Assembly: GCA_964612055.1 (NCBI GenBank)
Contig: CAZTBI010000001.1
Coordinates: 420,824-484,823, forward strand
Length of the DNA stretch: 64,000 nt
Reading direction: 5' to 3'
Origin: an uncultured Bdellovibrionales bacterium
GTDB taxonomy: Bacteria; Patescibacteriota; Minisyncoccia; Moranbacterales; UBA1568
Part shown: one piece after another, positions 2,481 through 54,404 of the stretch
How positions within the stretch are numbered: position 1 is the first letter of the stretch
Layout of the letters: every line of letters begins with the position of its first letter
Program-made: the position numbers and the translations under genes
The notes under the pieces: model-generated
Told to the model about the DNA's origin: nothing
The model's database searches: none
What the model saw: only the letters and a program-made list of their open reading frames with translations

Positions 2481-3383
2481 TTACTTCTTCTTGGCGCCGG
2501 TCGCGACAAAAGACGCGCCGATCTTCCAGCGGCCGCGTTCACGAAAAGCAGGAATAGTCTGCTTGCGAGCCGCATTGATGAGACCACTTAGGACAAGCTG
2601 GTGCTTCTTGGCATACTCTGACAACGTCACGATCTCCTCTCCTTTCAGGTAGGTGATACGCTTATGGAGAGACTCCATAAGAGCGAAGGCCACAATTTTT
2701 TCCATACGCTGCACCTGTTTGGTCGCATCGTACTCGCGAAAAGACTGATAATAGATACCTTTTTCCTTATCACGGATGATAACCACTGGGAAACCAAGTC
2801 GGAAAAGCTGGTAGTTCATGAGCGCCCGACCGATCCGACCATTGCCGTCACAGAACGGGTGAACACGCTCGAACTCGAGATGGAAACGGGCGATGACGTC
2901 AGTCACATAGCTCTCGTGATCACTTCCGTACTGTTCGATAGCGCGCTCCATCAAGGAAGCGACTTGCTCCGGTGCCGGTGCGATATGCTGCCCGACCCGG
3001 ACGAACTCACCCGGTGCTCGAAAACGTCCGGCAATCTTGTCATCGATATTACCGATCAACATCCTATGAAGAAGCAATACAAATTCTTCGGAGAGATCCG
3101 TGTTTCGCGCCTTAACCTTGATGTACTCCATCACTCGAGCCAGATTCTTGGCTTCGAAAACTTCTCGCAACTCAACCGTGCGCGATACCTCCATCTCAAA
3201 CAGGATCTTCTCCGTTTCTTTCAGCGTCAGAGTGGAGTTCTCAATGGCATTCGAGTTATAGACCCCTTCTGGAATTTCTACCTCATCGAGCACGTTCAAA
3301 AGCGCCTCTTTCCCCTTCTTGAGAGAGTCGAACTCCTTCTTGAGAGCCCTGATACGCTTTTTGTACACCGCGTTCAATGCCAT
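2481..3383 (-). CDS. fic: Fic family protein (Fido domain, AMPylation-type)
   Basis: Canonical Fic motif HPFCDGNGRIGR (HPFx[D/E]GNGRxxR) is present in the 300-aa ORF. Confidence 0.9.
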   Translation of the reverse strand: MALNAVYKKRIRALKKEFDSLKKGKEALLNVLDEVEIPEGVYNSNAIENSTLTLKETEKILFEMEVSRTVELREVFEAKNLARVMEYIKVKARNTDLSEEFVLLLHRMLIGNIDDKIAGRFRAPGEFVRVGQHIAPAPEQVASLMERAIEQYGSDHESYVTDVIARFHLEFERVHPFCDGNGRIGRALMNYQLFRLGFPVVIIRDKEKGIYYQSFREYDATKQVQRMEKIVAFALMESLHKRITYLKGEEIVTLSEYAKKHQLVLSGLINAARKQTIPAFRERGRWKIGASFVATGAKKK

Positions 3384-5362: not shown

Positions 5363-7942
<2,580 letters not shown>

Positions 7943-9039: not shown

Positions 9040-9882
9040 CTAATCCTTGGTATCACTCATAACTTCTTTCAATTTCTCGGCTGCAGCTTCCACGGTCGCC
9101 TTAAAATCGCTCATCGCCTTCTCGATAGCAACCTGACGAGTGTCAGCCAATGCCTGAATTTCTTTGCGGATCTTTTCAGATTCAGTTCTATCTGCTTGAA
9201 GGGCTTTGTGCGCCGCTACCAGCGCCGCCTGAAAGTTGGATCGAACAGTTGCTGGAGCAGTACCAGCCTCACAATCAGACTTTGCTTTATCAAGCGCAGA
9301 TTTCATGGCAGCTGCGAATGCATCGGCAGCGCTCTGCATATCATCCTTACGCGAAGCAAGAGCAGCATCGACGCCGGTACGGAAAGTTTCAATGGCAGCA
9401 TTCACTGCATCACGACGATCATCCACTGCCTCTTCAACCGTCTTTTTGAAGTCATCTACCGCCTCTTCCTCGGCATCAGTATTAGCCTTGGCATCAAGTT
9501 TGGCGTACATTTCACTACGCTTGGAGTCAGCATCGGAGCGACTATCTTCGAGCTTGGAGTCACGACTATCCCGACCCTCGTCCATCTGTCCGACACGTTC
9601 ACCAACTCGTCCCTCAAAATTCTGACGAGCCGAAGCCATGCCAGAACCGATAGTGCTCGCTGTTTCTGTAAAACGATTACAGAAAACTTCCTGCATACGA
9701 TCTCGTGCCGCCTCCATCCTCTCAGAGCGTTCTTCTTGAAGGGTGCTGGCTCGCTCCTCGCGATTCTGTAATCCAGCAGCCGATGGAAGAGCAGCTGAGA
9801 CAGACAGTGGCGCCACTAACGACACGGCGCCAAGAAAAGCTACCGCCTTACGCTGAAATTTCTTAAAAGCTATTTTCATCAT
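9040..9882 (-). CDS. Secreted coiled-coil protein (signal peptide; Ala/Glu/Asp/Arg-rich)
   Basis: N-terminal signal-like hydrophobic segment followed by low-complexity helical sequence. Confidence 0.55.
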   Translation of the reverse strand: MMKIAFKKFQRKAVAFLGAVSLVAPLSVSAALPSAAGLQNREERASTLQEERSERMEAARDRMQEVFCNRFTETASTIGSGMASARQNFEGRVGERVGQMDEGRDSRDSKLEDSRSDADSKRSEMYAKLDAKANTDAEEEAVDDFKKTVEEAVDDRRDAVNAAIETFRTGVDAALASRKDDMQSAADAFAAAMKSALDKAKSDCEAGTAPATVRSNFQAALVAAHKALQADRTESEKIRKEIQALADTRQVAIEKAMSDFKATVEAAAEKLKEVMSDTKD

Positions 9883-10870: not shown

Positions 10871-12930
10871 TAGAACAAACGTGAACGGACTTGTTTTTTC
10901 TTTTTCTTCCCGCCCAATGATTCTTCGAGTGATTGAATTTCATCACGGAGGATGGCAGCTGTTTCGAAATCAAGCACCTTCACTGCGGCCTGCATTTCTT
11001 TTTCCTTCAGACGAATGAGTTTTTCCGGATCCTTGGCAAAAATTTCCTGATCCAGGGCAACGTTCGCCAATACCGCCTTATCATGCTCACTCTCCATGGC
11101 TTCGGTGATATCGTGAATATTCTTTTTGATAGTCTGCGGCGTCATACCATGCTCGGTGTTGTACGCAATCTGGAGTTTGCGCCGACGGTTTGTCTCGTCG
11201 ATCGAACGACGCATCGAGTCAGTCATCGACTCAGCATAGAGAATCACTCGGCCAGAAGCGTTGCGGGCCGCGCGACCAATAATTTGGATGAGTGACGTCT
11301 CTGAGCGCAGGAACCCTTCCTTGTCAGCATCGAGGACACCGATAAAAGACACTTCCGGCAAATCCAACCCTTCACGCAAAAGATTAACTCCGACAATACA
11401 ATCAAACTCTCCTCTGCGGAAAGCCGTCAAAATCTTGATCCGATCAATCGTCTTGATATCGCTGTGCAGGTATTCTGCTTTCACCTTTTTCTCTTTCAGA
11501 TAGACAGAGAGGTCTTCGGCCATCTTTTTGGTCAGGGTCGTAGCAATCACTCGACCACCTTTTTTGATCTCTTTCAGTGTTTCTTCGATAAAGTGCCCGA
11601 TCTGTCCAGGATACGCGTCTTCACCCTTTTTCTCATAGATCGGGAGGACAGACACCTCTGGGTCAAGTAAGCCAGTCGGACGAATAACCTGCTCAGCAAT
11701 CTGCTCACTGATCTCGCGCTCATACTGGGCCGGTGTTGCCGAAGTAAAGATGACCGGACCAACATGCTCCAAAAATTCTTCGTAGCGAAGCGGTCGGTTG
11801 TCGAGTGCCGAGGGAAGACGGAAACCATATTCTACGAGCGTCTTTTTGCGCGACTGGTCGCCAGCATACATGCCACGGAGTTGCGGCAACGTCACATGTG
11901 ATTCATCAATCACCGTGAGGAAGTCCGGCTTGCCATCTTTCGTATGCGGGAAGTAGGAAAGCAACGTTTCTGGTGGTTCGCCTGGTTGCTTTCCCGACAG
12001 GTGCCTCGAATAGTTTTCGATACCGTTGCAGTAACCGATTTCCTCAACCATCGCGAGGTCATAACTCGTCCGCCGTTTCAGACGTTCTACTTCCAAAAGT
12101 TTCCCCTCTTGTTCTAATTCCTTGAGACGCAGATCAAGTTCTTCGCGGATTGACTTGATGGCGATATCTTTTTGATCTTTATCCGTAATGAAGTGCTTGG
12201 CCGGAAAAAGAAAAATGTTTTCCAGTGTTCCCAATATCCTCTGTGAAACAGGATCAATTTTTGTGATACTCCCGACCTTACCAGCGACAATCTCGATCAG
12301 ATAGATAAATTTCTCTGACACCGGCATGATTTCGATGCGGTTACCGAGACTGCGGAACTGCCCCGGAGCAATATCAGCATTGGTACGTTCAAAGAAAATA
12401 GCTACCAACTGATGCAGAAACTCTGTCCGAGAAAGCGCTTGGCCAACTTCGAGCCGCACATTTTCTTTTTCATATTCTTCCGGACTGCCTAAGCCATAGA
12501 TACACGACACCGACGCCACAATAATGACATCGCTCCGGGTGAGGAGCGCCTGAGTCGAAGCGTGACGCAAACGATCGATCTCAGCGTTGATCTGAGCATC
12601 TTTCTCGATATAGGTATCCGAGGCCGGCATGTAGGCTTCTGGCTGGTAATAATCGTAGTACGAGACGAAATAGTGTACCGCATGGTCAGGAAAAAACTGC
12701 TGATACTCCTGAGCGAGCTGCGCAGCGAGTGTTTTGTTGTGAGCAATCACCAGTGTCGGCTTGCCGAGATTCTTAATGACATTGGCCATGGTAAAAGTCT
12801 TCCCGGAGCCAGTCACCCCGAGGAGTGTCTGAAAGCGCTTGCCGTCGGAAAGTCCCTGCGACAACGCCGTGATCGCTTTGGGCTGATCACCAGCCGGTGG
12901 CCATGATGATTTGAGGTGAAAAGGAGACAT
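10870..12930 (-). CDS. uvrB: Excinuclease ABC subunit B (UvrB)
   Basis: Walker A motif GVTGSGKTFT and helicase motifs. The C-terminal UVR domain reads ...LRDEIQSLEE.... 686 aa. Confidence 0.95.
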   Translation of the reverse strand: MSPFHLKSSWPPAGDQPKAITALSQGLSDGKRFQTLLGVTGSGKTFTMANVIKNLGKPTLVIAHNKTLAAQLAQEYQQFFPDHAVHYFVSYYDYYQPEAYMPASDTYIEKDAQINAEIDRLRHASTQALLTRSDVIIVASVSCIYGLGSPEEYEKENVRLEVGQALSRTEFLHQLVAIFFERTNADIAPGQFRSLGNRIEIMPVSEKFIYLIEIVAGKVGSITKIDPVSQRILGTLENIFLFPAKHFITDKDQKDIAIKSIREELDLRLKELEQEGKLLEVERLKRRTSYDLAMVEEIGYCNGIENYSRHLSGKQPGEPPETLLSYFPHTKDGKPDFLTVIDESHVTLPQLRGMYAGDQSRKKTLVEYGFRLPSALDNRPLRYEEFLEHVGPVIFTSATPAQYEREISEQIAEQVIRPTGLLDPEVSVLPIYEKKGEDAYPGQIGHFIEETLKEIKKGGRVIATTLTKKMAEDLSVYLKEKKVKAEYLHSDIKTIDRIKILTAFRRGEFDCIVGVNLLREGLDLPEVSFIGVLDADKEGFLRSETSLIQIIGRAARNASGRVILYAESMTDSMRRSIDETNRRRKLQIAYNTEHGMTPQTIKKNIHDITEAMESEHDKAVLANVALDQEIFAKDPEKLIRLKEKEMQAAVKVLDFETAAILRDEIQSLEESLGGKKKKKQVRSRLF

Positions 12931-25503: not shown

Positions 25504-25520
25504 GCGGGGACGACCGGACT
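25504..25520 (-). repeat. Orphan direct copy of the 3' end of tRNA-Asp (GCGGGGACGACCGGACT), identical to 25601-25617
   Basis: 17/17 nt identity with the tRNA-Asp 3' terminus, located 80 nt downstream. Confidence 0.9.
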
Positions 25521-25600
25521 TACCCCTTCGGGGCATAAACTTCTCATCCGGACATTCCAGAAAACCAAAACCCGACCACAAGGGCCGGGTTCTTGATTTT
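25521..25600 (-). repeat. Conserved 80-nt tRNA-downstream element. Minus-strand order is terminator hairpin plus T-run, a variable segment, then GAGAAGTTTATGCCCCGAAGGGGTA. It is homologous to 26401-26478.
   Basis: Aligns with the element downstream of tRNA-Ala. Shared blocks include AACCCGGC..GGGTTTTG and GAGAAGTTTATGCCCCGRAGGGGTA. Confidence 0.8.
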
Positions 25601-25675
25601 GCGGGGACGACCGGACTCGAACCGGCGACCTACTGCGTGACAGGCAGTCGCTCTAACCAGCTGAGCTACGCCCCC
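25600..25675 (-). tRNA. tRNA-Asp (anticodon GTC)
   Basis: Revcomp folds as a cloverleaf GGGGGCG-TA-GCTC..GAGC-...CTGTCAC...-CCGGTTCGAGTCCGG-CGTCCCC-G, with anticodon loop CUGUCAC. CCA is not fully encoded. Confidence 0.9.
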
Positions 25676-25688
25676 ATTTTTTCTTTTG

Positions 25689-25762
25689 TAGCAGGGGCGA
25701 GACTCGAACTCGCGACCTCAGCGTTATGAGTGCTGCGTTCTAGCCAGCTGAACTACCCTGCC
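25689..25762 (-). tRNA. tRNA-Met (anticodon CAT), elongator-like
   Basis: Revcomp is GGCAGGGTAGTTCAGCTGGCTAGAACGCAGCACTCATAACGCTGAGGTCGCGAGTTCGAGTCTCGCCCCTGCTA, with anticodon loop CTCATAA. Confidence 0.85.
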
Positions 25763-25787
25763 ATATTTTCCGATTTGTTCTGCTTGT

Positions 25788-25859
25788 TGCGGGGGGTGGA
25801 TTCGAACCACCGACCTCTTGGTTATGAGCCAAGCGAGCTGCCAGACTGCTCTACCCCGC
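25788..25859 (-). tRNA. tRNA with CAT anticodon (Met or Ile2/lysidine type)
   Basis: Revcomp is GCGGGGTAGAGCAGTCTGGCAGCTCGCTTGGCTCATAACCAAGAGGTCGGTGGTTCGAATCCACCCCCCGCA, with anticodon stem CTTGG/CCAAG and loop CTCATAA. Confidence 0.85.
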
Positions 25860-26088
25860 TATAATTCTTCAATCGCTCTCTCCCTTGTCCAGATTTCCAA
25901 AATTTTTCTCTTTCTCTGGCATGAAGACTATCAGAACACTCCTCAAGTTTCAACACCTGCACTATCTTTTTTCCTTTTGTGGAAAATGTTTTTCCCTTCC
26001 TATGTTCATAGACTCTCTGTCGCAAGTCATGCGTCATACCGACATAGTATCGGCCGTTTTCAAATCGCAATGCATACACCGTATACAT
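25822..26088 (-). CDS. GIY-YIG nuclease family protein (YhbQ-like, 88 aa)
   Basis: MYTVYALRFENGRYYVGMTHDLRQRVYEHRKG matches the GIY...YIG...R..E pattern of the YhbQ/UPF0213 family (compare E. coli YhbQ [30 protein letters not shown]). Confidence 0.8.
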   Translation of the reverse strand: MYTVYALRFENGRYYVGMTHDLRQRVYEHRKGKTFSTKGKKIVQVLKLEECSDSLHAREREKFWKSGQGRERLKNYSGVEQSGSSLGS

Positions 26089-26094
26089 ATACTT

Positions 26095-26176
26095 TCTTGG
26101 TTATGAGCCAAGCGAGCCCTCCTACGGCGGGTAAACTGCCAGCTTGTCCGCCTGCGGCGGAACTGCTCTACCCCGC
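26095..26176 (-). other. Partial copy of the 5' portion of the CAT-anticodon tRNA (positions 1 to about 44, through the anticodon arm). Two roughly 20-nt insertions in the D-loop region include a conserved hairpin TCCGCCGCAGGCGGAC. It lies immediately upstream of the GIY-YIG gene.
   Basis: Revcomp is GCGGGGTAGAGCAGT[TCCGCCGCAGGCGGACAAGC]TGGCAG[TTTACCCGCCGTAGGAGGG]CTCGCTTGGCTCATAACCAAGA. Outside the brackets it is identical to the tRNA at 25788-25859. Confidence 0.8.
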
Positions 26177-26217
26177 TGTATGATGATTGTATCCCTTTTC
26201 TCTTGACACGCCAACTG

Positions 26218-26291
26218 TGGGTGATCCAAGATTCGAACTTGGGACCTCGACATTATCAGTGTCGCGCTCTAACCAACTGAGCTAATCACCC
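26218..26291 (-). tRNA. tRNA-Ile (anticodon GAT)
   Basis: Revcomp is GGGTGATTAGCTCAGTTGGTTAGAGCGCGACACTGATAATGTCGAGGTCCCAAGTTCGAATCTTGGATCACCCA, with anticodon loop CTGATAA. Confidence 0.9.
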
Positions 26292-26348
26292 GAATTTCTG
26301 ATAGCCAAAGAAAAAGCTTCGAAAAGACCTATTTTTCGAGCCTCGGCA

Positions 26349-26376
26349 GTATAGCTGAACTAAGAAAAAATTTCAA
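26349..26376 (-). promoter_or_regulatory. Sigma-70-like promoter for tRNA-Ile (minus strand: TTGAAA, 16-nt spacer, TATACT)
   Basis: -35 TTGAAA (revcomp of 26371-26376) and -10 TATACT (revcomp of 26349-26354), about 55 nt upstream of the tRNA-Ile 5' end. Confidence 0.5.
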
Positions 26377-26384
26377 GTCGGATG

Positions 26385-26400
26385 TGGACCGTACAGGACT
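26385..26400 (-). repeat. Orphan direct copy (third copy) of the tRNA-Ala 3' end (GTGGACCGTACAGGAC)
   Basis: 16-nt identity with 26661-26676 (tRNA-Ala 3' end) and 26481-26495. Confidence 0.9.
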
Positions 26401-26478
26401 TACCCCTCCGGGGCATAAACTTCTCGCCCAGTCGATCCAAAAATCAAAACCCCGCAACCAGTGCCGGGTTTTAACTTT
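26401..26478 (-). repeat. Conserved ~80-nt tRNA-downstream element (second copy; homolog of 25521-25600)
   Basis: Shared blocks TTACCCCTYCGGGGCATAAACTTCTC and CAAAACCC...GCCGGGTT with the Asp-locus element. Confidence 0.8.
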
Positions 26479-26495
26479 GGTGGACCGTACAGGAC
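26479..26495 (-). repeat. Orphan copy (second copy) of the tRNA-Ala 3' end, here carrying a full templated CCA (revcomp GTCCTGTACGGTCCACCA)
   Basis: The sequence ggtggaccgtacaggac includes CCA, whereas the resident tRNA-Ala gene encodes only ..CCACA. Confidence 0.85.
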
Positions 26496-26610
26496 GCGAA
26501 TACTCGACCTCCGGCCTGCGTTCTATGAGGCTTCCGCCCTCTAGCCCCGCAAGCGGGTCACCCCAAACGGGAAACTCCCGTTTCCCGACCCCTTCCCGTT
26601 CAAGCCCTGT
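26496..26610 (-). ncRNA. Structured G-rich segment (about 115 nt) ending in a tRNA-Ala-like 3' terminus. Candidate small RNA or element remnant with several hairpins, including AAACGGGAGUUUCCCGUUU and a GGAA-tetraloop stem.
   Basis: Multiple perfect hairpins. It is bounded upstream by the tRNA-Ala terminator and downstream by a CCA-bearing tRNA 3'-end copy. No family assigned. Confidence 0.3.
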
Positions 26611-26656
26611 ACAATAAAATATAAAATGCCCGTATCATACGACACGGGCATTTTAT
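26611..26656. terminator. Rho-independent terminator after tRNA-Ala (ATGCCCGT-loop-ACGGGCAT with flanking T/A runs; bidirectional)
   Basis: 8-bp perfect stem with T-runs on both strands. Confidence 0.7.
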
Positions 26657-26659
26657 AAT

Positions 26660-26734
26660 CTGTGGACCGTACAGGACTCGAACCTGCCACCCCCGCATTG
26701 CAAATGCGGTGCTCTACCAGATGAGCTAACGGCC
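26660..26734 (-). tRNA. tRNA-Ala (anticodon TGC)
   Basis: Revcomp is GGGCCGTTAGCTCATCTGGTAGAGCACCGCATTTGCAATGCGGGGGTGGCAGGTTCGAGTCCTGTACGGTCCA, with anticodon loop TTTGCAA. Confidence 0.9.
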
Positions 26735-26741
26735 CAATTTA

Positions 26742-26984
26742 CTACTTCGTTATTGTATCAAGAAGCTTTCTCCCTTGTCCTGACTTGAGAAACCTCTCTC
26801 TTTTCATAGCTTCCGTCTTTTCTTCGTACTGCTCAGTATAGAGTAGCACAAAGGGCTTATTTTGTTTTGTATATGTGTTCGATCCGGTATTATGTTCCCT
26901 TAGTCTAACAGCGGCATCTTTCCCGCTGTAGCCCACATAACGCTTACCATTTTTTTCACTTTTTAGTACATACACTGTGAACAT
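26742..26984 (-). CDS. GIY-YIG nuclease family protein (YhbQ-like, 80 aa)
   Basis: MFTVYVLKSEKNGKRYVGYSGKDAAVRLREHNTG carries GIY-YIG motifs. It ends 8 nt before the tRNA-Ala 5' end. Confidence 0.8.
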   Translation of the reverse strand: MFTVYVLKSEKNGKRYVGYSGKDAAVRLREHNTGSNTYTKQNKPFVLLYTEQYEEKTEAMKRERFLKSGQGRKLLDTITK

Positions 26985-37368: not shown

Positions 37369-37548
37369 GCTATATCTTAAACACGATCACATCGCCATCT
37401 TGGACGATGTAGTCTTTGCCCTCGAGACGGAGTGTCCCCTGGTCACGGGCAGCGCTCCAAGAGCCAGCTTCAAGCAGTTTGGTCCAGTGAATTATTTCCG
37501 CTCGAATAAATTTTTCCTCGAAGTCACCATGAATAGCCGCTCCCGTAT
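37369..37548 (-). pseudogene. Duplicated 3' fragment of ychF. It encodes only the C-terminal 58 aa (...GAAIHGDFEEKFIRAEIIHWTKLLEAGSWSAARDQGTLRLEGKDYIVQDGDVIVFKI*) and has no start.
   Basis: About 174 nt at roughly 85% nucleotide identity to 48629-48800, the 3' end of ychF. The peptide is identical to YchF except for 3 conservative changes. An in-frame stop lies immediately upstream. Confidence 0.75.
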
Positions 37549-48628: not shown

Positions 48629-49678
48629 TCAGATTTTGAACACTATGACATCGCCATCCTGCACCACGTAGTCCTTGCCCTCGAGACGAAGCGTCCCGTT
48701 GTCTCTGGCAGCACTCCAAGATCCCGCTTCAACAAGCTTCGTCCAGTGAATTATTTCCGCTCGGATAAATTTTTCTTCAAAGTCGCCATGGATAGCAGCT
48801 CCCGCTTGCGGCGCTGTCGAGCCCTGGTGGATAGTCCAGGCGCGCGTCTCCACCTCGCCGGTCGTAAAATAGGTCATTAGTCCCAGAAGCGCATACGCCT
48901 TCTTGGCCAGATCTCCGAGATGGGACACCAGTTCCATTTCCGTTATTTCCTCCTGAGTCATTTCAATCAACTCCTCTTCGATCTTGATATCGAGCTTCAC
49001 ATGTGGTCGCGCCTCAAGCTCTGGTGCCAGTGTTACCGCGACATCAGAAACATTGTACACATAGAGAAACGGCTTCGTGGTAAGAAGCTGCAACTCCTTC
49101 ACAATCTTTTTTTCTTCATCAGAAAGCGTCTCAATCATGGCGTGCGGCAAACGGGCAGCTTGAAATTCTGTTTCCAACTTCTCAAGCACTCCCATCTCCG
49201 CCAGGGCTTCTTTCTTCCCGGCCCGCGCCTCTTTCACAGTTTTCAATTTCCGCTTCGTCACTGTCTCAAGATCAGCCAAGATGAGCTCAGTATTGATAAC
49301 TTCGATATCCTCTTTCGGTTCGACGCGGTTGTGGACATGGATAATATCAGGGTTTTCAAATACCCGCACCACTTCAACAATAGCATCCACCTCGCGGATA
49401 TTCTGCAAAAATTTATTGCCCAGCCCCTCCCCTTCGCTTGCCCCTTTCACCAAGCCAGCAATATCCACGAATTCGATCACTGCCGGAATGATCTTCTTGG
49501 TATTGGACATGACGGCCAATTTCCCCAAACGCTCATCAGGTACTTCGACGATCCCGACATTCGGCTCGATGGTACAGAAAGGATAGTTATTGATATCCAC
49601 CTGCTTCCGTGTCAGCGCCTTGAACAGTGTGGATTTCCCCACGTTTGGCAGCCCAACAATGCCCACTTTCAAACTCAT
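48629..49678 (-). CDS. ychF: Redox-regulated ATPase YchF (Obg-family GTPase with TGS domain)
   Basis: MSLKVGIVGLPNVGKSTLFKALT G1 motif and a C-terminal TGS (...GKDYVVQDGDVIVFKI). Confidence 0.95.
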   Translation of the reverse strand: MSLKVGIVGLPNVGKSTLFKALTRKQVDINNYPFCTIEPNVGIVEVPDERLGKLAVMSNTKKIIPAVIEFVDIAGLVKGASEGEGLGNKFLQNIREVDAIVEVVRVFENPDIIHVHNRVEPKEDIEVINTELILADLETVTKRKLKTVKEARAGKKEALAEMGVLEKLETEFQAARLPHAMIETLSDEEKKIVKELQLLTTKPFLYVYNVSDVAVTLAPELEARPHVKLDIKIEEELIEMTQEEITEMELVSHLGDLAKKAYALLGLMTYFTTGEVETRAWTIHQGSTAPQAGAAIHGDFEEKFIRAEIIHWTKLVEAGSWSAARDNGTLRLEGKDYVVQDGDVIVFKI

Positions 49679-49740
49679 AGTATATTCATTAGTTCATCTC
49701 ATTCTTCCAGAAAAACAGGCTTTGGTCAATAATCATGCAT

Positions 49741-49864
49741 CTTCCAAAAGTTCTCTTGGGCACACCTGGAGCCGAAAGCCAGTCTTTTCCGTTTTGGAAA
49801 AGTTTCGGCGAAGAGTAGAGAGAATCCGCTGGGATTCTCTCGGCACAAGAGAATTATTTGGAAG
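49741..49864. ncRNA. Structured repeat element, copy 1 (about 120 nt), with nested helices and candidate sRNA/riboswitch-like or MITE-like character. The core TTCTCTTGGGCAC...GGCACAAGAGA is bracketed by an outer helix CTTCCAAA/TTTGGAAG.
   Basis: Near-identical core to 53829-53923. Internal perfect hairpins (CTTTCCG/CGGAAAG, CCGAAA/TTTCGG, GAGAATCC/GGGATTCTC). Confidence 0.45.
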
Positions 49865-49883
49865 GTAAATGATTAAGGTTCAG

Positions 49884-49926
49884 TAAAAGAAAAAACGCCT
49901 CGCTCGTTGTGAAACGAGAGAGGCGC
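49884..49926 (-). terminator. Rho-independent terminator downstream of lipoprotein gene 1. It is near-identical to the terminator of lipoprotein gene 2.
   Basis: Minus strand reads GCGCCTCTCTCGTTTCACAACGAGCGAGGCG followed by TTTTTTCTTTTACTG. It shares about 45 nt with 50886-50930. Confidence 0.7.
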
Positions 49927-49947
49927 ATAGAGCACGTTGGCCGAAAA

Positions 49948-50775
49948 TCAGAGGAGCGTGATGCCGCCGGTTTCCTTCAGATCCCAGCGTGGGCTCTTAG
50001 GATTGAGCGGCACCTTGGTACCGTCCTTCAGGATCACCACGATGTAGCCCTGGTCGTTGTTCGGCATGCCCAGGATATCGACGTAGTAGTCGCCATTCCC
50101 GGTCAAGGCCAAAGTGCCTCGTGCCGTGCTGTCATACCAATACGTCAACTCCGATATCCACTGGACGTAGGCCACGGCCAATGGGTCGACCCGGTACGCC
50201 AGACCGCCCAAGACGTTGGCACCAAAGTCGATGTGGAGCTTGTCCGGTGAAACGAACGTGATGCTCCCCAGATGGTAGTCACCGTACTGGAGAGCTCCAT
50301 CACTGGTGATCACGATCTTCGCGCCGGTCACATCCCAGCGGCTGTCCTTCTCACTGATGGCAAACGCCACGGGCTCGCCGGTCTTCAGGATGATTCGGAA
50401 GTAGCCCTCGTCGGCATGAGCCGTGTTTGGCAGAACCGTCGTCCCGCTCGGATCGAATGGTGCCCGAGCCAGGGAGTCCTCCCAGCCGACCAAACCCGAA
50501 ATGAACTCTACTTCCCCCACTTCTTCGGGCTTAATGATCCTCGTGGGATCATCCTTCCCTGTGGTCGGGTTCTTCGTTGCCATCCCCAGGAGATGTTCCT
50601 GGGACAGATCGAACTTCACCGTGATGACATCCGACCCGATACCAATCTTCCCGCCTTTTTGCCAGGCAGGAAATGCCCGATCAGGACCGGTATCACCACC
50701 GCCACCACCGCAAGCTGCAAGCAGCACGGACAGCGACAGAGCAAGCAAGAAAGAAAGTACGCTGTGCCTCTTCAT
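49948..50775 (-). CDS. Lipoprotein (signal peptide plus lipobox LLAAC, Gly-rich linker) in a GC-rich island
   Basis: MKRHSVLSFLLALSLSVLLAACGGGGG and a strong SD GGAGG upstream. Confidence 0.6.
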   Translation of the reverse strand: MKRHSVLSFLLALSLSVLLAACGGGGGDTGPDRAFPAWQKGGKIGIGSDVITVKFDLSQEHLLGMATKNPTTGKDDPTRIIKPEEVGEVEFISGLVGWEDSLARAPFDPSGTTVLPNTAHADEGYFRIILKTGEPVAFAISEKDSRWDVTGAKIVITSDGALQYGDYHLGSITFVSPDKLHIDFGANVLGGLAYRVDPLAVAYVQWISELTYWYDSTARGTLALTGNGDYYVDILGMPNNDQGYIVVILKDGTKVPLNPKSPRWDLKETGGITLL

Positions 50776-50885
50776 GGCAACCTCCGTGTTGAGTGAAAGA
50801 ACAGGCCATCCTCCTCAAGAAATCTGTTTTTGAAGTGGACTGAGTATCATACCTCAAAACCACTCTTCTGTAAAGAATCAGTAAA

Positions 50886-50930
50886 AGAAAAAACGCCTCG
50901 CCCGTTATGAAACGAGAGAGGCGTGGTGAT
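50886..50930 (-). terminator. Rho-independent terminator downstream of lipoprotein gene 2 (paralogous to 49884-49926)
   Basis: Shared sequence CAGTAAAAGAAAAAACGCCTCGCYCGTTRTGAAACGAGAGAGGCG. Confidence 0.7.
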
Positions 50931-50940
50931 CGCTTTCCGA

Positions 50941-52062
50941 TCAGTTGCAGCTGTACTTCAGCTTGTAGTCCGTGGTGTCGAAGGTCGCCGTGACGCTCGG
51001 GTCCGACAAGAGTGTCCAAATCGGCGGGCCAGCGAACCAGCCGAAACCGAAGGGGCCGACCTCGTCCTGTTCCGGATCGTAGGTCACGGTGCCGTCGTCA
51101 TGCTTCGTTCCCTGAAGCCCTGTGACATTGCCGTTGCCTTGGCACGGCAGGTTCGGGAATTCGAAGTAGAAGTTCCCGGTACCTTCGTCAAAGAGGATGG
51201 GTACCAAGTGAGCTGAGGGCGCCACGGCGTTGCCATCCTTGTCCGTCCAGGGAATGTAGCCCCAGCCGTCCTTGCCATCGGCACCGGCCGTATCAGCATT
51301 CCAGTTGAACGCAAGTGGGTGGTTCTCCAGGTCGAAGGTGTCGATATCGACCAAGTGGTCGTTCTTCCCGAAGCCGCCGGCGCAGTTCGATCCGAAATCG
51401 AATCGGAACTTCGCCGTGCCATCGGCATTCTTCATGCCTTTGAACGTGGCACCCTGGTAGTCACCCCAGTTGATCTGGCCGCCGTTGTCGAGCACCACGC
51501 CCGGCAGACCAGCTGGATCGATCGTGAACTTACGTTCCGATGTCAGATCCATCCAAAGCGGCACGTCGCCCGTCGACTTGAGGTAGGCCGTGTAGAACAC
51601 GACGTCCCGGTTGCAGGTGCCAGGCAAAGCGACCGTATTGGTCTCCAGGTCCGGTGCCGCACAGGCCCGCGACACATTGCCGTTGATCGAGAGCCCCACC
51701 TGGAACGAGTTGGCGCAGATCTTGTCGAGATCCGCCGGATCGATCAGGTAGGTACCTGCTTCATCCGACCAGCCGTAGTAGAAAAGGCCGTCTTCCGTAC
51801 GGTTCAGACCGATGAACTGGCTGACCGGTGTCGCCAAGATGGATCCTGCCGACGTGACCGGCAGGGTATCACCTTCTGCCGCGACCTTGTTCTGGGCGAG
51901 GATATGAGCCTGCCCGAACTGGCTCTTGATGGTGACATCCACTGCCTTGGGCGGCGGATCTCCTTGGACAGGTGGTTCCGTGCTGGCACCACCGCCACCA
52001 CCGCAGGCCGTGAGAGCTGCCAGGATACCTGGCAGAATGAAGTAAGTTGTGAACGAACGCAT
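50941..52062 (-). CDS. Lipoprotein (signal peptide plus lipobox ALTAC, Gly-rich linker) in a GC-rich island. Start at 52062 with SD GGAGGAAATC; the track ORF extends to 52140.
   Basis: MRSFTTYFILPGILAALTACGGGGG. The N-terminal architecture parallels the neighbouring lipoprotein. Confidence 0.6.
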   Translation of the reverse strand: MRSFTTYFILPGILAALTACGGGGGASTEPPVQGDPPPKAVDVTIKSQFGQAHILAQNKVAAEGDTLPVTSAGSILATPVSQFIGLNRTEDGLFYYGWSDEAGTYLIDPADLDKICANSFQVGLSINGNVSRACAAPDLETNTVALPGTCNRDVVFYTAYLKSTGDVPLWMDLTSERKFTIDPAGLPGVVLDNGGQINWGDYQGATFKGMKNADGTAKFRFDFGSNCAGGFGKNDHLVDIDTFDLENHPLAFNWNADTAGADGKDGWGYIPWTDKDGNAVAPSAHLVPILFDEGTGNFYFEFPNLPCQGNGNVTGLQGTKHDDGTVTYDPEQDEVGPFGFGWFAGPPIWTLLSDPSVTATFDTTDYKLKYSCN

Positions 52063-52231
52063 GATTTCCTCCGAATGAGGGTTGAGGGGACTCGCGTCCC
52101 CTTCAGGTATACGCTTTGCTTTCGCCGCGTAACCCCTCATGAGGACCCTTCAGCGTACAAGGAAACCGATGTTTTGTCAATAGGGACAGCAGAATGCTAT
52201 ACTAGTGGCATAAACTTTCAGAATTTCCTCT

Positions 52232-53566
52232 ATGAAACCAGAAATCTTCAAAGCCTACGATATCCGGGGCATCTACCCGACCGAGATCAACGAAGATGAT
52301 GCTTACCATATCGGCCGAGCTGTGGTGGAACATTTACAACCGAAAGTGCTCGGTGTTGGTCGTGATATAAGGGAGTCTTCTCCGCGTCTGTTCGAAAGCT
52401 TTGCGAAAGGTGTCATGGATGGTGGCGCTAACGTTATCGACCTCGGTATCATCACCACGCCGATGGTGTACTTCGCGGCAGGACGACTCGATATCGACGC
52501 CGCTGTTTCACTGACTGCCTCACATAATCCTCCAGAATACAACGGCTTGAAAATTGCTCTCCGTGGCGCTGTCCCAGTCGGAGAAACCACCGGTCTGCGA
52601 GAAATTCGTGACCTCGCGCTCAAACAAGAATGGCCAACCATCACCGAACGAGGAACCATGACCAGCGAAGATGTGAAACACGCCTACTATGGCTACTTCG
52701 CTTCCTTTGCCGACTTCAAAGGCAAACACTTCACTCTCGCTATTGATACCGCCAACTCCATGGGAGTCTTTGAGCTTCCTATCTATGAGCAGTTCGCTGA
52801 AAACCTCTCTGTCGTCAATCTCTACAACGATCTCGATCACCCTTTCGAATGTCACGAGGCCAATCCGCTCAAGACCGAGACACTTGATGAACTGCGCGCT
52901 AAAGTAACTGAGATCCACGCTGATCTTGGTATCGCCTACGATGGCGATGCGGATCGCGTCGGATTTGTTGATGAAACTGGAACCGTCATTCCTATGGATC
53001 TGACCACCGGACTCATTGCCAAGACCATCCTGAAACACAATCCTGGCCGCACCGTCCTCTATGATTTGCGCTCTTCCAAGGCCGTCAAAGAAATTATCGA
53101 AGAAAATGGAGGTGTCGCCAAAGAATGCCGCGTCGGGCACGCCTATATCAAACGCCAAATGACCGAGGAAGGAGCTGTGTTTGCCGGCGAACTTTCTGGC
53201 CACTACTACTTCCAAGAAAATTCCAACGCCGAAGCCAGTACCTTGGCCGCCCTCCTTCTTCTCAATCTCATGGCTGAAACCGGCAAACCAATCTCTGAGC
53301 TCGTTTCAGAACTCCGTCGCTACAGTCATTCCGGGGAGATCAATAGTGAGGTCGCTGACAAAAATGCTGTGCTTACTACCCTGAAAACTAAATATGCCGA
53401 TGGTAAACAACATGAACTCGATGGCTTGAAAGTGGAATATGAAGACTGGTGGTTTAATGTTCGTCCGTCCAACACCGAGCCCCTGCTCCGTCTCAATCTC
53501 GAGGCCAACACGCCGGAACTGATGGAAGAAAAGAAAACCGAACTTTTGGCACTCATCCGAGGATAA
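52232..53566 (+). CDS. Phosphoglucomutase/phosphomannomutase family protein
   Basis: Active-site TASHNPPEYNGLK (phosphoserine loop), a metal-binding DGDADR motif and an N-terminus typical of PMM/PGM. Confidence 0.9.
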   Translation: MKPEIFKAYDIRGIYPTEINEDDAYHIGRAVVEHLQPKVLGVGRDIRESSPRLFESFAKGVMDGGANVIDLGIITTPMVYFAAGRLDIDAAVSLTASHNPPEYNGLKIALRGAVPVGETTGLREIRDLALKQEWPTITERGTMTSEDVKHAYYGYFASFADFKGKHFTLAIDTANSMGVFELPIYEQFAENLSVVNLYNDLDHPFECHEANPLKTETLDELRAKVTEIHADLGIAYDGDADRVGFVDETGTVIPMDLTTGLIAKTILKHNPGRTVLYDLRSSKAVKEIIEENGGVAKECRVGHAYIKRQMTEEGAVFAGELSGHYYFQENSNAEASTLAALLLLNLMAETGKPISELVSELRRYSHSGEINSEVADKNAVLTTLKTKYADGKQHELDGLKVEYEDWWFNVRPSNTEPLLRLNLEANTPELMEEKKTELLALIRG

Positions 53567-53815
53567 AGAAACAAAGCGCCCGCTCCCTTTCTCGGGCGAT
53601 GAGTTTCCCAAAAATACCCTCCCTTTTCTTCCCCCATTGTTTCCGCCGAACATCCCTGACTCACTTCGTCGAACAGGGAGCTGTCGAGTCGAGACCATCC
53701 TGCCTACGCTCGACTGTTACCGGCGCGCTCATCACGGATGTGACCGTCGGAAACGGGAGAAAGAAAATGAAAGTATTTTTGGAAACTCTCTCAATACATC
53801 GTTTTCCACTCCCAA

Positions 53816-53937
53816 GAATTCTCTTGGGCACGCCTGGAGCCGAAAGCATGGTCTTTCCGTTCTTACGGAAAGTTTCGGCGAAGAGTAGCGAAAACCCGCT
53901 GGGGTTTTCGTGGCACAAGAGAGTTGCTTGGGAGTGG
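53816..53937. ncRNA. Structured repeat element, copy 2. The core is identical to copy 1, and the outer helix is CCACTCCCAAG/CTTGGGAGTGG (compensatory relative to copy 1).
   Basis: Core at 53829-53923 matches 49751-49853. The outer flanks differ between copies yet remain complementary within each copy. Confidence 0.45.
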
Positions 53938-54035
53938 AAGGAACAAAAAAACTTGCATAGTTTTTCGAGAAAGAGTAAAATAGTCACTAATGAACCATCT
54001 CATCCCCAAAGAAACCGCCTTTCGTAAAGCGTCGT

Positions 54036-54062
54036 AAGACCGCCACTGAGGCGGTTTTTTTC
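54036..54062 (+). terminator. Rho-independent terminator (GACCGCCACTGAGGCGGTC-like stem plus TTTTTTTCTG)
   Basis: CCGCC/GGCGG stem followed by a T7 run on the plus strand, downstream of repeat copy 2. Confidence 0.55.
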
Positions 54063-54101
54063 TGATTCAAAACTGTTCCTTTCCAAATTAGAGGAGAAGC
54101 T

Positions 54102-54404
54102 ATGACAAAGAATCCTACTCATCTCACTCTCTGGCTCACCGAAATCGACAAACTTAGGGAGAGGGGTGTCGTCATCTGTCCGCTCATGGGCCCAGACTAT
54201 CCAGCAGAGATCTGTGCCTGTGACATTCCAGAAACACGAGCTCATTTCTTCGCAGAGCAACCGGATGAACTCCTCTGTTGTGTCGGAAAATCCTGTCTTC
54301 CGACGTTGATTCACACTGATCTCGCCGGTGAAGAACGTAGCCCCAAGCCACCGCCCCGACTCAAACGACCACGAGGTTCATGGATCGCAGCGCTTCGCAA
54401 ATAG
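54102..54404 (+). CDS. Hypothetical Cys-rich small protein (100 aa)
   Basis: SD GAGGAGAAG about 8 nt upstream of the ATG; seven Cys residues. Confidence 0.4.
   Translation: MTKNPTHLTLWLTEIDKLRERGVVICPLMGPDYPAEICACDIPETRAHFFAEQPDELLCCVGKSCLPTLIHTDLAGEERSPKPPPRLKRPRGSWIAALRK

Follow-up and report, generated by a model that had tools for sequence, protein, structure and literature searches.

The closest described counterparts of the element reported here are structured repeats found between bacterial genes. The element bcr1 is a cruciform-like sequence of ~155 bp with two independent stem-loops, compensatory changes and a non-conserved distribution (PMC3184786). Compensatory changes are also common in the hairpins of REPINs (PMC3116915), and REPs display G.T pairing and GTAG/CGTC tags (PMC3733652). 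The Correia/nemis elements of Neisseria, the enterobacterial ERIC and the YPAL of Yersinia are intergenic imperfect palindromes of 100-170 nt that form long RNA hairpins; they occur in both orientations, and their presence at orthologous sites varies (PMC3184786).

Two copies of an element with many of these traits, called here the T-element, occur in the window, i.e., the whole 64-kb stretch of DNA analysed. They are read, with a probability of about 0.55, as a low-copy, lineage-restricted and non-autonomous structured repeat of the REP/REPIN or bcr1 kind. The T-element resembles bcr1 in size (~145 nt), in its predicted outer stem and two stem-loops, in compensatory changes that keep the fold, in its intergenic location and in a distribution that is not conserved among close relatives (PMC3184786). 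However, the two have no sequence similarity, the T-element occurs in Patescibacteria in fewer copies, no counterpart was found of the 5-bp direct repeats that flank bcr1, and variable outermost arms combined with an invariant internal bulged-G segment are peculiar to the T-element. Moreover, bcr1 is known to be transcribed. With the REP, REPIN and BIME sequences mobilised by RAYT (TnpA-REP), it shares the nature of a non-coding extragenic palindrome, compensatory changes in hairpins, G.T pairs suggesting a single-stranded active form, and a mostly vertical inheritance with occasional duplication (PMC3116915, PMC3733652). REPs and REPINs also form mosaic clusters with other palindromes in either orientation, comparable to the X+T composite and to the A and B copies placed head to head described below. 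Nevertheless, a REP measures 20-40 bp and a REPIN consists of two inverted REPs forming one hairpin, whereas the long outer stem of the T-element encloses two unrelated tandem hairpins; a genome usually has tens to hundreds of REPs, as against a few T-elements, and no RAYT was found for the latter in a weak test with approximate queries. The traits listed above for Correia/nemis, ERIC and YPAL are likewise shared, but these families have conserved terminal inverted repeats and a single hairpin, whereas T-element termini differ between copies and its fold is branched; the TA duplication of Correia was not found either.

Both window copies lie on the + strand, at the sites (49751-49853 and 53829-53923) and in the common orientation originally predicted, the ~115 nt then proposed being too short for the full palindromes (Table 1). 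Their alignable core spans 49741-49864 in copy 1 and 53809-53934 in copy 2; aligned together with their flanks, the copies have a mean column identity of 86%. All helices named in the original prediction were recovered, i.e., the shared CCGAAA/TTTCGG, an inner helix that reads CTTTTCC/GGAAAAG in one copy and CTTTCCG/CGGAAAG in the other, the pair GAGAATCC/GGATTCTC versus GAAAACCC/GGGTTTTC, and the self-complementary, copy-specific outer stems CTTCCAAA/TTTGGAAG versus CCACTCCCAAG/CTTGGGAGTGG. Minimum free energies (MFE) reach -57.3 and -71.6 kcal/mol for copies 1 and 2 (z = -7.1 and -7.8), and none of 200 shuffles folds as well. When strands are compared, the forward one folds better in copy 1 (-67.2 versus -59.0 kcal/mol) and in copy 2 (-76.3 versus -69.3 kcal/mol). 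Covariance model (CM) scores are 158.9 bits (model R1) and 139.6 bits (R2) for copy 1, and 151.7 and 150.5 bits, respectively, for copy 2. A two-anchor junction pattern matches these two copies only, with 0.00 matches expected in shuffles, and pattern and CM searches of the 64-kb window found no further copy.

Table 1. Positions in the window of the two T-element copies and of the features beside them
Feature	Position	Strand	Remark
ychF promoter-like site TTGACC-17-AAGAAT	49701..49729	-	abuts 5' end of copy 1; outside the element
T-element copy 1	49730..49875	+	subfamily A, type-i junction
Copy 1 arms	5' 49730-49758, 3' 49846-49875	+	fold
Copy 1 P2	49771-49777/49803-49809	+	nested hairpin 49784-49802
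Copy 1 P3	49818-49827/49832-49841	+	loop GCTG 49828-49831
Intrinsic terminator of upstream lipoprotein gene	49898..49919	-	repeat and terminator calls; context only
Element X	53601..53789	+	long imperfect palindrome (~190 nt) directly 5' of copy 2; unrelated to T
T-element copy 2	53798..53945	+	subfamily A, type-i junction
Copy 2 arms	5' 53802-53826, 3' 53916-53941	+	fold
Copy 2 P2	53839-53845/53873-53879	+	nested hairpin 53853-53872
Copy 2 P3	53888-53897/53902-53911	+	loop GCTG
Conserved downstream unit	53955..54062	+	outside the T-element; ahead of small ORF 54102-54404

On sequence evidence, the T-element is an undescribed non-coding family restricted to Candidatus Moraniibacteriota. A search of relatives combined with covariance modelling collected 14 distinct copies, of ~145 nt and up to ~205 nt, built on a 25-30-bp outer stem whose ends covary freely and on two inner hairpins. 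The loops of these hairpins, GCAUGGU and CGCUGG, are conserved family-wide, as is the invariant mid-stem segment CAAGAAU/GUUGCUUG, including a bulged G and a U.G wobble that is kept in 13 of the 14 copies. In the 14-copy alignment, 93.5% of cells pair and compensatory changes are seen in 27 of the 38 consensus pairs, values reached by none of 500 shuffles; the 11-copy alignment gives 28 of 38 pairs. Similarly, in an 8-copy MAFFT alignment 94.5% of cells pair, and double changes occur at 22 pairs (11 ± 2 in shuffles, 5-8 in slid controls). The MFE of the forward strand is the lower one in all 11 copies compared, by 5-19 kcal/mol, and G.U cells outnumber A.C cells (44 versus 9 over 14 copies), which shows that folding concerns one particular strand. 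A sequence resembling the unpaired REP tag, GTAG in type i or CGTC in type ii, immediately precedes the P3 hairpin in most copies, but it is missing from the B and D variants and base-paired in type ii. The original prediction of a structured, covarying element is borne out, and the element has a preferred strand. Rfam 15 yields no match at gathering thresholds and noise only at E<=10; no riboswitch class had been recognised earlier and this database likewise holds no family for the T-element. The accompanying argument, by which covariation would not be expected of a dispersed repeat, fails, because compensatory changes have been documented in bcr1 and in REPINs, both of them dispersed (PMC3184786, PMC3116915).

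Copy 1 had been placed between ychF and the lipoprotein genes and indeed has the terminator of the latter on one side and the ychF promoter on the other, being antisense to the genes on either side. The -35-box region (GGTCAA/AGTCAA, strand as read) stands beside ychF in all relatives read, and TTGACC-17-AAGAAT is complete in L005. The promoter scan detected no promoter-like site on the + strand ahead of either window copy, and neither copy is followed by a terminator of its own on that strand. The plus-strand terminator reported ~100 nt after copy 2 does exist (54036-54058) but belongs to a separate unit, which displays a promoter-like TTGCAT-17-TAAAAT (hexamers read by eye, not flagged by the scan) and the leader cTAATGAACC.... 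This unit is conserved in L005, L012, L015 and L018; its terminator is not that of the T-element, since it persists with the promoter-like site in L009, where both T and X are missing. Element X (MFE -68.2 kcal/mol, z = -4.9; inverted repeat I1) has homologs in L005, L018, L015, L095 and L096, and the X+T composite recurs in other genomes and at another locus. The X of L018 is 80% like that of the window, but the adjoining B-type T is only 48% identical to copy 2.

Copies are dispersed over at least five kinds of gene context (ychF, pmm, tRNA-Gly/FNR, ABC ATPase and NUDIX), and orthologous sites display presence or absence, subfamily replacement and inversion. Upstream of ychF, the window, L010 and L017 carry subfamily A, and L034 and L036 a larger variant; L005, L011, L018 and L019 have the unrelated palindrome S there, L015 has X, and the site is empty in L012 and L009. 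Downstream of pmm, the window has X+A, L015 A alone, L012 a type-ii variant and L018 X+B; the same X+B block is inverted in L005, and L009 is empty. At the tRNA-Gly site, A and B stand head to head in L004, X+T occurs in L095 and L096, and L097 and L098 are empty. The ends of contigs L010 and L011 fall within T or where X starts; L010 (YchF identity 99%) carries the ortholog of copy 1 in the same place, its contig ending inside the element. The positional ortholog of copy 2 (L015:4986-5135) is 82% identical, several positional orthologs are 82-84% identical against about 75% for the pmm coding sequence, and the same-genome paralogs L002 and L003, at unrelated loci, are 88% identical. As in a MITE, which had been named as the contrary case, the copies are dispersed, polymorphic and found in both orientations, but they have no MITE-type terminal inverted repeats or target-site duplications and their copy number is low.

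Several observations weigh against a dispersed repeat. Besides the two copies in 64 kb, no others were found in the 10 kb on either side of about 90 loci, the MAG JBAQNF01 contains only 2 exact-pattern matches, and copies are concentrated at three intergenic sites instead of being widely spread. Retention of a copy beside the ychF promoter, in the same orientation, down to 69-74% YchF identity (L034, L036) and ortholog conservation above that of pmm fit a vertically inherited functional gene equally well, and loops and a wobble conserved family-wide are more typical of protein-binding RNA than of selfish DNA. GC skew places the forward strand off the lagging-strand template, a position that does not fit an IS200/IS605-type ssDNA mechanism. 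The six copies read with their flanks show neither target-site duplication nor conserved true termini, and about 1 Mb of sampled sequence yielded no transposase, a weak test as the queries were approximate. Because of these three negative results, a family of independent genes for a protein-binding small RNA, expressed from the forward strand in one to few paralogous copies, is a tentative alternative; where X occurs, the product is possibly a ~350-nt X+T RNA, with the bulged-G/U.G helix and the two loops as binding surface. Strong covariation, strand asymmetry and low copy number agree with it, as do ortholog conservation above that of the neighbouring coding sequence, the same absolute orientation of 9 of the 10 syntenic ychF/pmm copies, with retention down to 69% YchF identity, and the constant order and orientation of X and T in the inverted block or at the other locus. 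Yet such genes would have neither promoter-like site nor terminator in the window, copy 1 has its start right at the -35 box of the divergent ychF promoter, and the L012 element begins about 25 nt past the pmm stop codon. Furthermore, L009 does without the element at both sites, the CM search gave no match in several relatives with 75-86% YchF identity, unrelated palindromes S and X fill the same slot elsewhere, and in type-ii copies (L017, L012) a plain regular helix stands in place of the junction.

A non-mobile boundary element selected by the host, acting as a 3'-end stabiliser, exonuclease block or insulator and occasionally duplicated by ordinary recombination, seems rather unlikely. Every copy does have a gene end or terminator on one side and the next promoter on the other, 11 of 15 are co-oriented with an adjacent gene (contexts read by eye), in L012 and L015 the element comes straight after the pmm stop codon with no terminator between, and REPs are thought to act so (PMC3733652). 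Nonetheless, copy 1, L017, L004A and L005B keep the forward-strand G.U pattern while antisense to flanking genes, a simple stabiliser needs no conserved loops or bulged helix, and related genomes do without the element at the same sites. An improbable reading is that of a site-specific recombination substrate, which might be a folded site like attC, a site of the Xer/IMEX type or one edge of an invertible segment. It would explain why the ~350-bp X+T block is inverted between L018 or the window and L005, and why the window copies are direct repeats around lipoprotein genes that vary among relatives. Integron attC sites are imperfect palindromes of ~60-140 nt, more conserved in structure than in sequence and strand-specific, with an extrahelical base, and the T-element is similar in these respects, its strand-specific fold and extrahelical base recalling attC bottom strands. 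However, CAAGAAT/GTTGCTTG misfits RYYYAAC/GTTRRRY, R''/R' boxes and an R/L box consensus are lacking, there is no cassette array or element-cargo link, and no integrase or other recombinase gene stands beside any copy in the contexts read. In addition, L012 and L009 have the lipoprotein genes without the ychF-side element, and no shared inverted repeats were identified at the inversion breakpoints. The leading idea of the original prediction, a riboswitch or cis-regulatory leader of the downstream gene, is the most doubtful. The three-way junction of type-i copies, with its conserved nucleotides, and the terminator after copy 2 would suit it, but it is contradicted by gene context: copies show no consistent downstream gene or orientation, copy 1 lies antisense and upstream of the ychF promoter, and the terminator serves a unit with its own promoter-like site, conserved where the T-element is absent. 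The regular helix of type-ii copies and the lack of an Rfam match also argue against such a leader.

If the T-element is a dispersed structured repeat, new copies would arise through a single-stranded folded intermediate, either ssDNA or a transcript, and the conserved helix and loops would be the recognition site of a trans-acting protein. Copies would persist only in the dispensable DNA extending from a terminator to the next promoter. A co-transcribed copy, such as the one after pmm, may incidentally serve as a 3' stabiliser, and the T-element would not be a regulator of its neighbouring genes.

Positions 49600-54200, read directly and covered by a repeat scan (families D5 and D8), hold two structured copies on the same strand, as the original prediction described. 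These copies of the T element, a T-shaped intergenic repeat of about 145 nt, share a mean column identity of 86% when aligned with their flanks (copy 1, w1; copy 2, w2). Each folds into a long outer stem closing a three-way junction that gives rise to two inner hairpins, hairpin 1 (P2) and hairpin 2 (P3). The minimum free energies (MFE) are -57.3 (w1) and -71.6 kcal/mol (w2), with z scores of -7.1 and -7.8; none of 200 shuffles is as stable. A two-anchor pattern drawn from the junction strands matches only w1 and w2 in the window (shuffle expectation 0.00), and looser single-anchor scans of the window yield nothing extra above chance. The list of inverted repeats leaves w1, w2 and a second palindrome, element X, as the long intergenic palindromes of the window; another long inverted pair, at 12362-12539, was checked and falls within an ORF, and the remaining pairs are short or have overlapping arms. 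A coding origin was considered for the ORFs that overlap the copies (49590-49868 and 53599-54027), but indels separating the copies have lengths not divisible by three, and the substitutions track base pairs.

The suspicion that no known RNA class is represented holds against Rfam 15, whose families include hammerhead, twister, pistol, hatchet, Y RNA, 6S, SRP and riboswitches: only six tRNAs pass the gathering threshold in the window. Matches at E<=10 near both copies are noise, with best local scores of 11-20 bits against thresholds of 40-100, and the surroundings of a copy in a relative (L096) likewise match no family. Literature searches returned no paper describing the T element, or repeat elements or lineage-specific structured RNAs in Patescibacteria/CPR.

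The YchF protein encoded next to copy 1 has hundreds of close homologs, the named ones belonging to Candidatus Moraniibacteriota/Moranbacteria. A scan with the junction pattern across genomes of 185,579 species found three true copies (L002, L003 and L004), the first two being the 2 exact-pattern matches of a single Moraniibacteriota MAG (JBAQNF01); a fourth match, in Marinobacterium, falls within a coding sequence and is due to chance. Neither the pattern in viral contigs and JGI metagenome contigs nor blastn against phage and plasmid collections gave matches. Syntenic loci obtained via YchF and FNR homologs were then searched with two covariance models, R1 (5 copies) and R2 (11 copies), which brought the family to 14 distinct full T copies, plus L010, truncated by its contig end, and L036/L037. 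The contigs come from groundwater, lake and sediment samples. Copy number is low: two copies in the 64-kb window, and no additional ones in the +/-10-kb flanks surrounding about 90 loci. Within the window and flanks searched, no copy lies outside three sites; L002 and L003, from the pattern scan, stand at unrelated loci. The L004 contig (CAYYET010000021.1) was deposited as an 'uncultured Bdellovibrionales' MAG, and homologs of its FNR-like gene include ones from Moranbacteria at 56-72% identity as well as closer unnamed ones. Judged by its sequence, the contig is probably mis-binned Moraniibacteria, and a cross-phylum transfer of T to Bdellovibrionales was rejected.

Coordinates and occupancy of the T element, companion elements and neighbouring features (window positions unless a locus of a relative, L002-L098, is named; a final A or B in a locus name gives the T subfamily)
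Feature	Location	Strand	Remark
T copy 1, full palindrome with arms	49730-49875	+	
T copy 2, full palindrome with arms	53798-53945	+	
T subfamily A			type-i junction GGGCACRCCUGGAG ... GGCGAAGAGUAG
T type-ii variant	L017, L012		junction strands GACYUUGUA ... UACAACGUC, regular helix
T subfamily B	L004B, L005, L018		very divergent
T variant D	L034, L036/L037		larger, 185-205 nt
Element X	window 53601-53789; L005:5849-6025; L018:1888-2013; L015:9726-9876; L095:~6075-6265; L096:~2835-3040		
S element	L005:9885-9952; L011:~2990-3050; L018:4996-5055; L019:2113-2222		
GC-rich hairpin insertions	L096:2943-2962, 3084-3108, 3163-3185; L034:~9690-9715		
Lipoprotein-gene terminator	49898-49919	minus	beside copy 1
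ychF promoter-like site TTGACC-17-AAGAAT	49729-49701	minus	abuts copy 1
Site 1, upstream of ychF promoter	window, L010 (99% YchF), L017		subfamily A
Site 1	L034, L036 (69-74% YchF)		variant D; ychF and pmm adjacent, divergent
Site 1	L005/7/8, L011, L018, L019		unrelated 68-nt T-shaped palindrome S
Site 1	L015		element X
Site 1	L012, L009		empty; upstream terminator directly after -35 box
Site 2, downstream of pmm	window		X then A
Site 2	L015		A alone
Site 2	L012		type-ii alone, start ~25 nt past stop codon
Site 2	L018		X then B
Site 2	L005/L006		X+B block inverted relative to both flanks
Site 2	L009		empty
Site 3, downstream of FNR and tRNA-Gly	L004		A and B head to head
Site 3	L095, L096		X then T
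Site 3	L097, L098		empty
Unit downstream of copy 2	53955-54062		terminator 54036-54058
Small ORF after this unit	54102-54404		
Repeated tRNA-Gly(UCC) 3' end	L095:5995-6012; L096:2765-2782		
Direct repeat, 172 nt	37374-37545 and 48633-48804		second copy in ychF 3' end
Giant ORF, 1951 aa	42685-48540	minus	
Lipoprotein-like genes	49948-50775, 50941-52140		
Their terminator regions	49875-49925 and 50873-50923		92% identical
tRNA cluster (Asp, Met, Met, Ile, Ala)	25513-26803		

Covariation runs through the whole structure. Aligning 8 copies with MAFFT leaves 94.5% of the cells paired; both partners have changed in 22 pairs, compared with 11 +/- 2 for shuffles and 5-8 for controls in which the partners are slid by 1-3 columns. 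Compensatory changes affect 28 of the 38 consensus pairs with 11 copies, and 27 of the 38 in a model-based alignment of 14 copies (93.5% of cells paired), values reached by 0 of 500 shuffles. All helices are concerned, including P1, which is invariant inside subfamily A. Four features are conserved family-wide. One is the central part of the outer stem (5'-CAAGAAU / 5'-GUUGCUUG), whose bulged G is accompanied by a U.G wobble retained by 13 of 14 copies; the others are the internal loop GCAUGGU of hairpin 1, the loop CGCUGG of hairpin 2, and GGYAC ahead of the 3' strand of P1. The forward strand has the lower MFE in 11/11 copies, by 5-19 kcal/mol, and G.U cells number 44 vs 9 for A.C. The T fold is a property of one strand, although forward-strand models guided the choice of orientation and alignment. 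A hammerhead or other ribozyme was rejected: the junction strands misfit the hammerhead core, type ii has no unpaired junction and Rfam is silent. A kink-turn at the base of P2 (C-stem, GAA loop, tandem G.A) can be read in type-i copies only, being lost in type ii, B and D, and is therefore not family-defining.

Occupancy of the three sites varies among relatives, and assemblies break there: the L010 contig ends within the T element, and that of L011 where X starts at site 2. The X+T composite of about 350 nt is found at sites 2 and 3, and is therefore recurrent at two unrelated loci; shared inverted repeats could not be defined at the breakpoints of its inversion. At site 1, three unrelated palindrome families abut the ychF -35 box, at the sole dispensable DNA of that spacer, and no shared target sequence was found beyond GTCAA of this box. 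Positional orthologs (w2/L015, L095/L096, L005B/L018B) are 82-84% identical and the paralogs L002 and L003 of one genome 88%; A and B copies reach only 44-53% identity, despite about 90% YchF identity of their hosts. The X of L018 is 80% like that of the window and adjoins a B-type T. Such identities mix vertical and paralogous signals. Presence and absence, replacement, inversion, composites, paralogs at unrelated loci and assembly breaks together argue for a dispersed non-autonomous repeat rather than a gene-specific regulator.

The companion palindromes have features of their own. Element X is a conserved non-coding imperfect palindrome of about 190 nt (z = -4.9) with no Rfam match and with the invariant stretches CGAACATCCCTGACTC..CGAACAGGGAG and CTCGACTGTTACCGG; it is itself dispersed and often lies immediately 5' of T. 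The S element, a 68-nt T-shaped palindrome of the form TTTACCCTGTGTAAT[hairpin][hairpin]ATTACACAGGGTAAA, occupies the slot upstream of ychF in relatives; comparison of L005 with L011 shows its inner hairpins covarying, and its sequence is unrelated to T. Small GC-rich hairpin insertions (CCTGCCCGCC..GGAGGG/GGCAGG) interrupt X and both T hairpins in L096, and T in L034, and look like a still smaller inserted palindrome.

Several other repeats occur in the window and in relatives. In L095 and L096, a second stretch matching the 3' end of tRNA-Gly(UCC), ccggtcgcccgctca, lies about 170 nt past the intact tRNA, preceded in L096 by an anticodon-arm-like piece; it may represent either an att site left by an integrated element or a second tRNA that was disrupted. 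The two copies of the direct repeat that reaches into ychF are 84% identical, and a partial ychF duplicate or paralog may lie 11 kb away. The giant ORF carries tandem repeats of about 150 nt (families D1 and D2), with Laminin_G_3 and fn3-like domains in its homologs from relatives. The lipoprotein-like genes have no Pfam match; their slot varies in gene number and size among relatives and is empty in L034 and L036. In the tRNA cluster, repeated spacers (families D4, D6 and D9; 62 nt at 81% identity) suggest local duplication.

The cis-regulatory role proposed for the two copies is not borne out: contexts and orientations vary, copy 1 is antisense, and the terminator near copy 2 is independent. 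Copy 1 lies between the lipoprotein terminator and the ychF promoter-like site, antisense to both genes, with no promoter preceding it on the + strand in a promoter scan. Copy 2 comes after pmm and element X, and the terminator noted downstream of it is part of another unit, which carries promoter-like hexamers itself. Conservation of this unit extends to L005, L012, L015 and L018; the element-free L009 likewise has the terminator, together with a promoter-like site. Lying ahead of a small ORF, the unit comprises a promoter-like TTGCAT-17-TAAAAT, a leader cTAATGAACC.. and a final T-run, with two AACCGCC/ACCGCC copies that could each pair with the terminator GGCGGT; it resembles an attenuator or a small RNA. 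No constant partner emerges among the genes beside T, which include those for an ABC ATPase, a NUDIX protein, FNR/tRNA-Gly and hypothetical proteins.

Several known classes of repeats bear comparison with T. REP/REPIN elements are recognized by a palindromic unit of 20-40 bp, an unpaired GTAG or CGTC tag at one of its ends, tens to hundreds of copies per genome and a cognate RAYT gene (Y1 HUH transposase), which often has the repeats on either side. A GTAG stands directly 5' of the P3 hairpin (9-10-bp stem, 4-6-nt loop) in w1, w2, L002, L003, L004A and L015, and before P3 with a 4-nt spacer in L018B; CGTC precedes P3 in L017 and L012, where it pairs with the GAC in the 5' junction. REP superfamilies are defined by these two tetranucleotide tags (PMC3733652). 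The tag beside hairpin 2 is suggestive and is treated only as a lead, because it is absent in B and D variants (L005B, L004B, L034/L036) and base-paired in type ii; the look-elsewhere effect is large. REP/REPIN hairpins also show frequent compensatory changes, G.T pairs, mosaic clusters and largely vertical inheritance (PMC3116915, PMC3733652). However, a REPIN forms one hairpin from two inverted REPs, whereas T consists of tandem, unrelated, self-folding hairpins with an outer stem of other sequence, so that architecture differs; copy number appears to differ too, in the window, the locus flanks and the pattern scan. A tblastn search for RAYT and IS608/IS200 TnpA over about 1 Mb of sampled loci found no match, a weak test. 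Judged by GC skew, the lagging-strand template does not carry the T forward strand, and an IS200/IS605-like route is therefore not favoured.

The original prediction had held that MITE features would speak against a functional RNA. T copies are indeed dispersed and polymorphic, but they have no shared terminal inverted repeats and no target-site duplication. Whereas a classical MITE has conserved termini, the outermost 8-17 bp of the T arms vary among copies, and the arm segment they have in common is the internal CAAGAAT/GTTGCTTG only, asymmetric by one extra G. The flanks of w1, w2, L002, L003, L004A and L015 contain no shared or copy-specific direct repeat; they are inverted complements. 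The bcr1 element of the Bacillus cereus group is closer: it is a cruciform-like unit of about 155 bp with two independent stem-loops, compensatory changes and a non-conserved distribution, and it is transcribed (PMC3184786). T shares with this description (PMC3184786) a cruciform-like unit of about 150 nt, two stem-loops, compensatory changes and a non-conserved distribution; it differs in that bcr1 has 5-bp direct repeats at the insertion site, of which none was found for T. Overall, bcr1 and REP/REPIN are the closest described analogues. A retron msr/msd or other RT-associated ncRNA was discarded, with no RT adjoining any copy.

The reading we prefer, at a probability of roughly 55%, is that T is a structured non-autonomous repeat propagated via a folded single-stranded form recognised by a trans-acting protein; both the single-stranded intermediate and the protein are steps that we infer. 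A bolder reading, which we regard as improbable, makes T or the X+T composite the single-stranded substrate of some CPR protein. The substrate would belong either to a small RNP of a new sort, for which the invariant bulged-G/U.G helix and both GC(N)UGG loops would be the foundation, or to a structure-guided mobilisation of ssDNA of a new kind without terminal repeats or target duplication, which, if true, would account for the origin of the copy-specific complementary arms. Comparably improbable is a family of small protein-binding RNA genes, with which several traits agree equally well: low copy number, concentration at three sites, a place next to ychF that is kept, with absolute orientation unchanged, in genomes whose YchF identity falls to 69%, positional orthologs better conserved than the pmm coding sequence (~75%), and loops and a wobble conserved family-wide. 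However, T has no promoter or terminator signals, several copies leave no room for a promoter, some close relatives lack T, and unrelated palindromes take the same slots.

The remaining readings are weaker. A non-mobile boundary or 3'-stabiliser element is quite unlikely. For a recombination site the odds are very small. Integron attC sites are marked by R''/R' (RYYYAAC/GTTRRRY) and L boxes, cassette arrays and a nearby IntI; in our own reading, the T arm motifs CAAGAAT and GTTGCTTG misfit these boxes, and the neighbours of T are syntenic housekeeping genes with no integrase. A riboswitch, which would stand in sense at a constant place in the 5' UTR, before genes of related function, and have an expression platform, is hardly credible. 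The 'junction' of type-ii copies forms a plain helix, which disfavours a ligand pocket or a ribozyme core.

T is best filed under small structured intergenic repeats; it is a genuine and well-supported element, new for CPR bacteria, and is probably not a new regulatory principle. Its unusual traits, as they appear in the copies compared, are the T shape, an invariant bulged helix flanked by complementary ends that vary, and a low copy number. The covariation once put forward as the mark of a functional RNA fails, alone, to separate regulatory RNAs from structured repeats, and metagenome motif-discovery pipelines should allow for covarying repeats of this kind. The genomes of CPR bacteria measure about 1 Mb and leave hardly any DNA to spare. 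For these bacteria, T is usable as a marker of strain-level dynamics, as a reason for assembly breaks in MAGs and as a handle on the protein that would recognise it.
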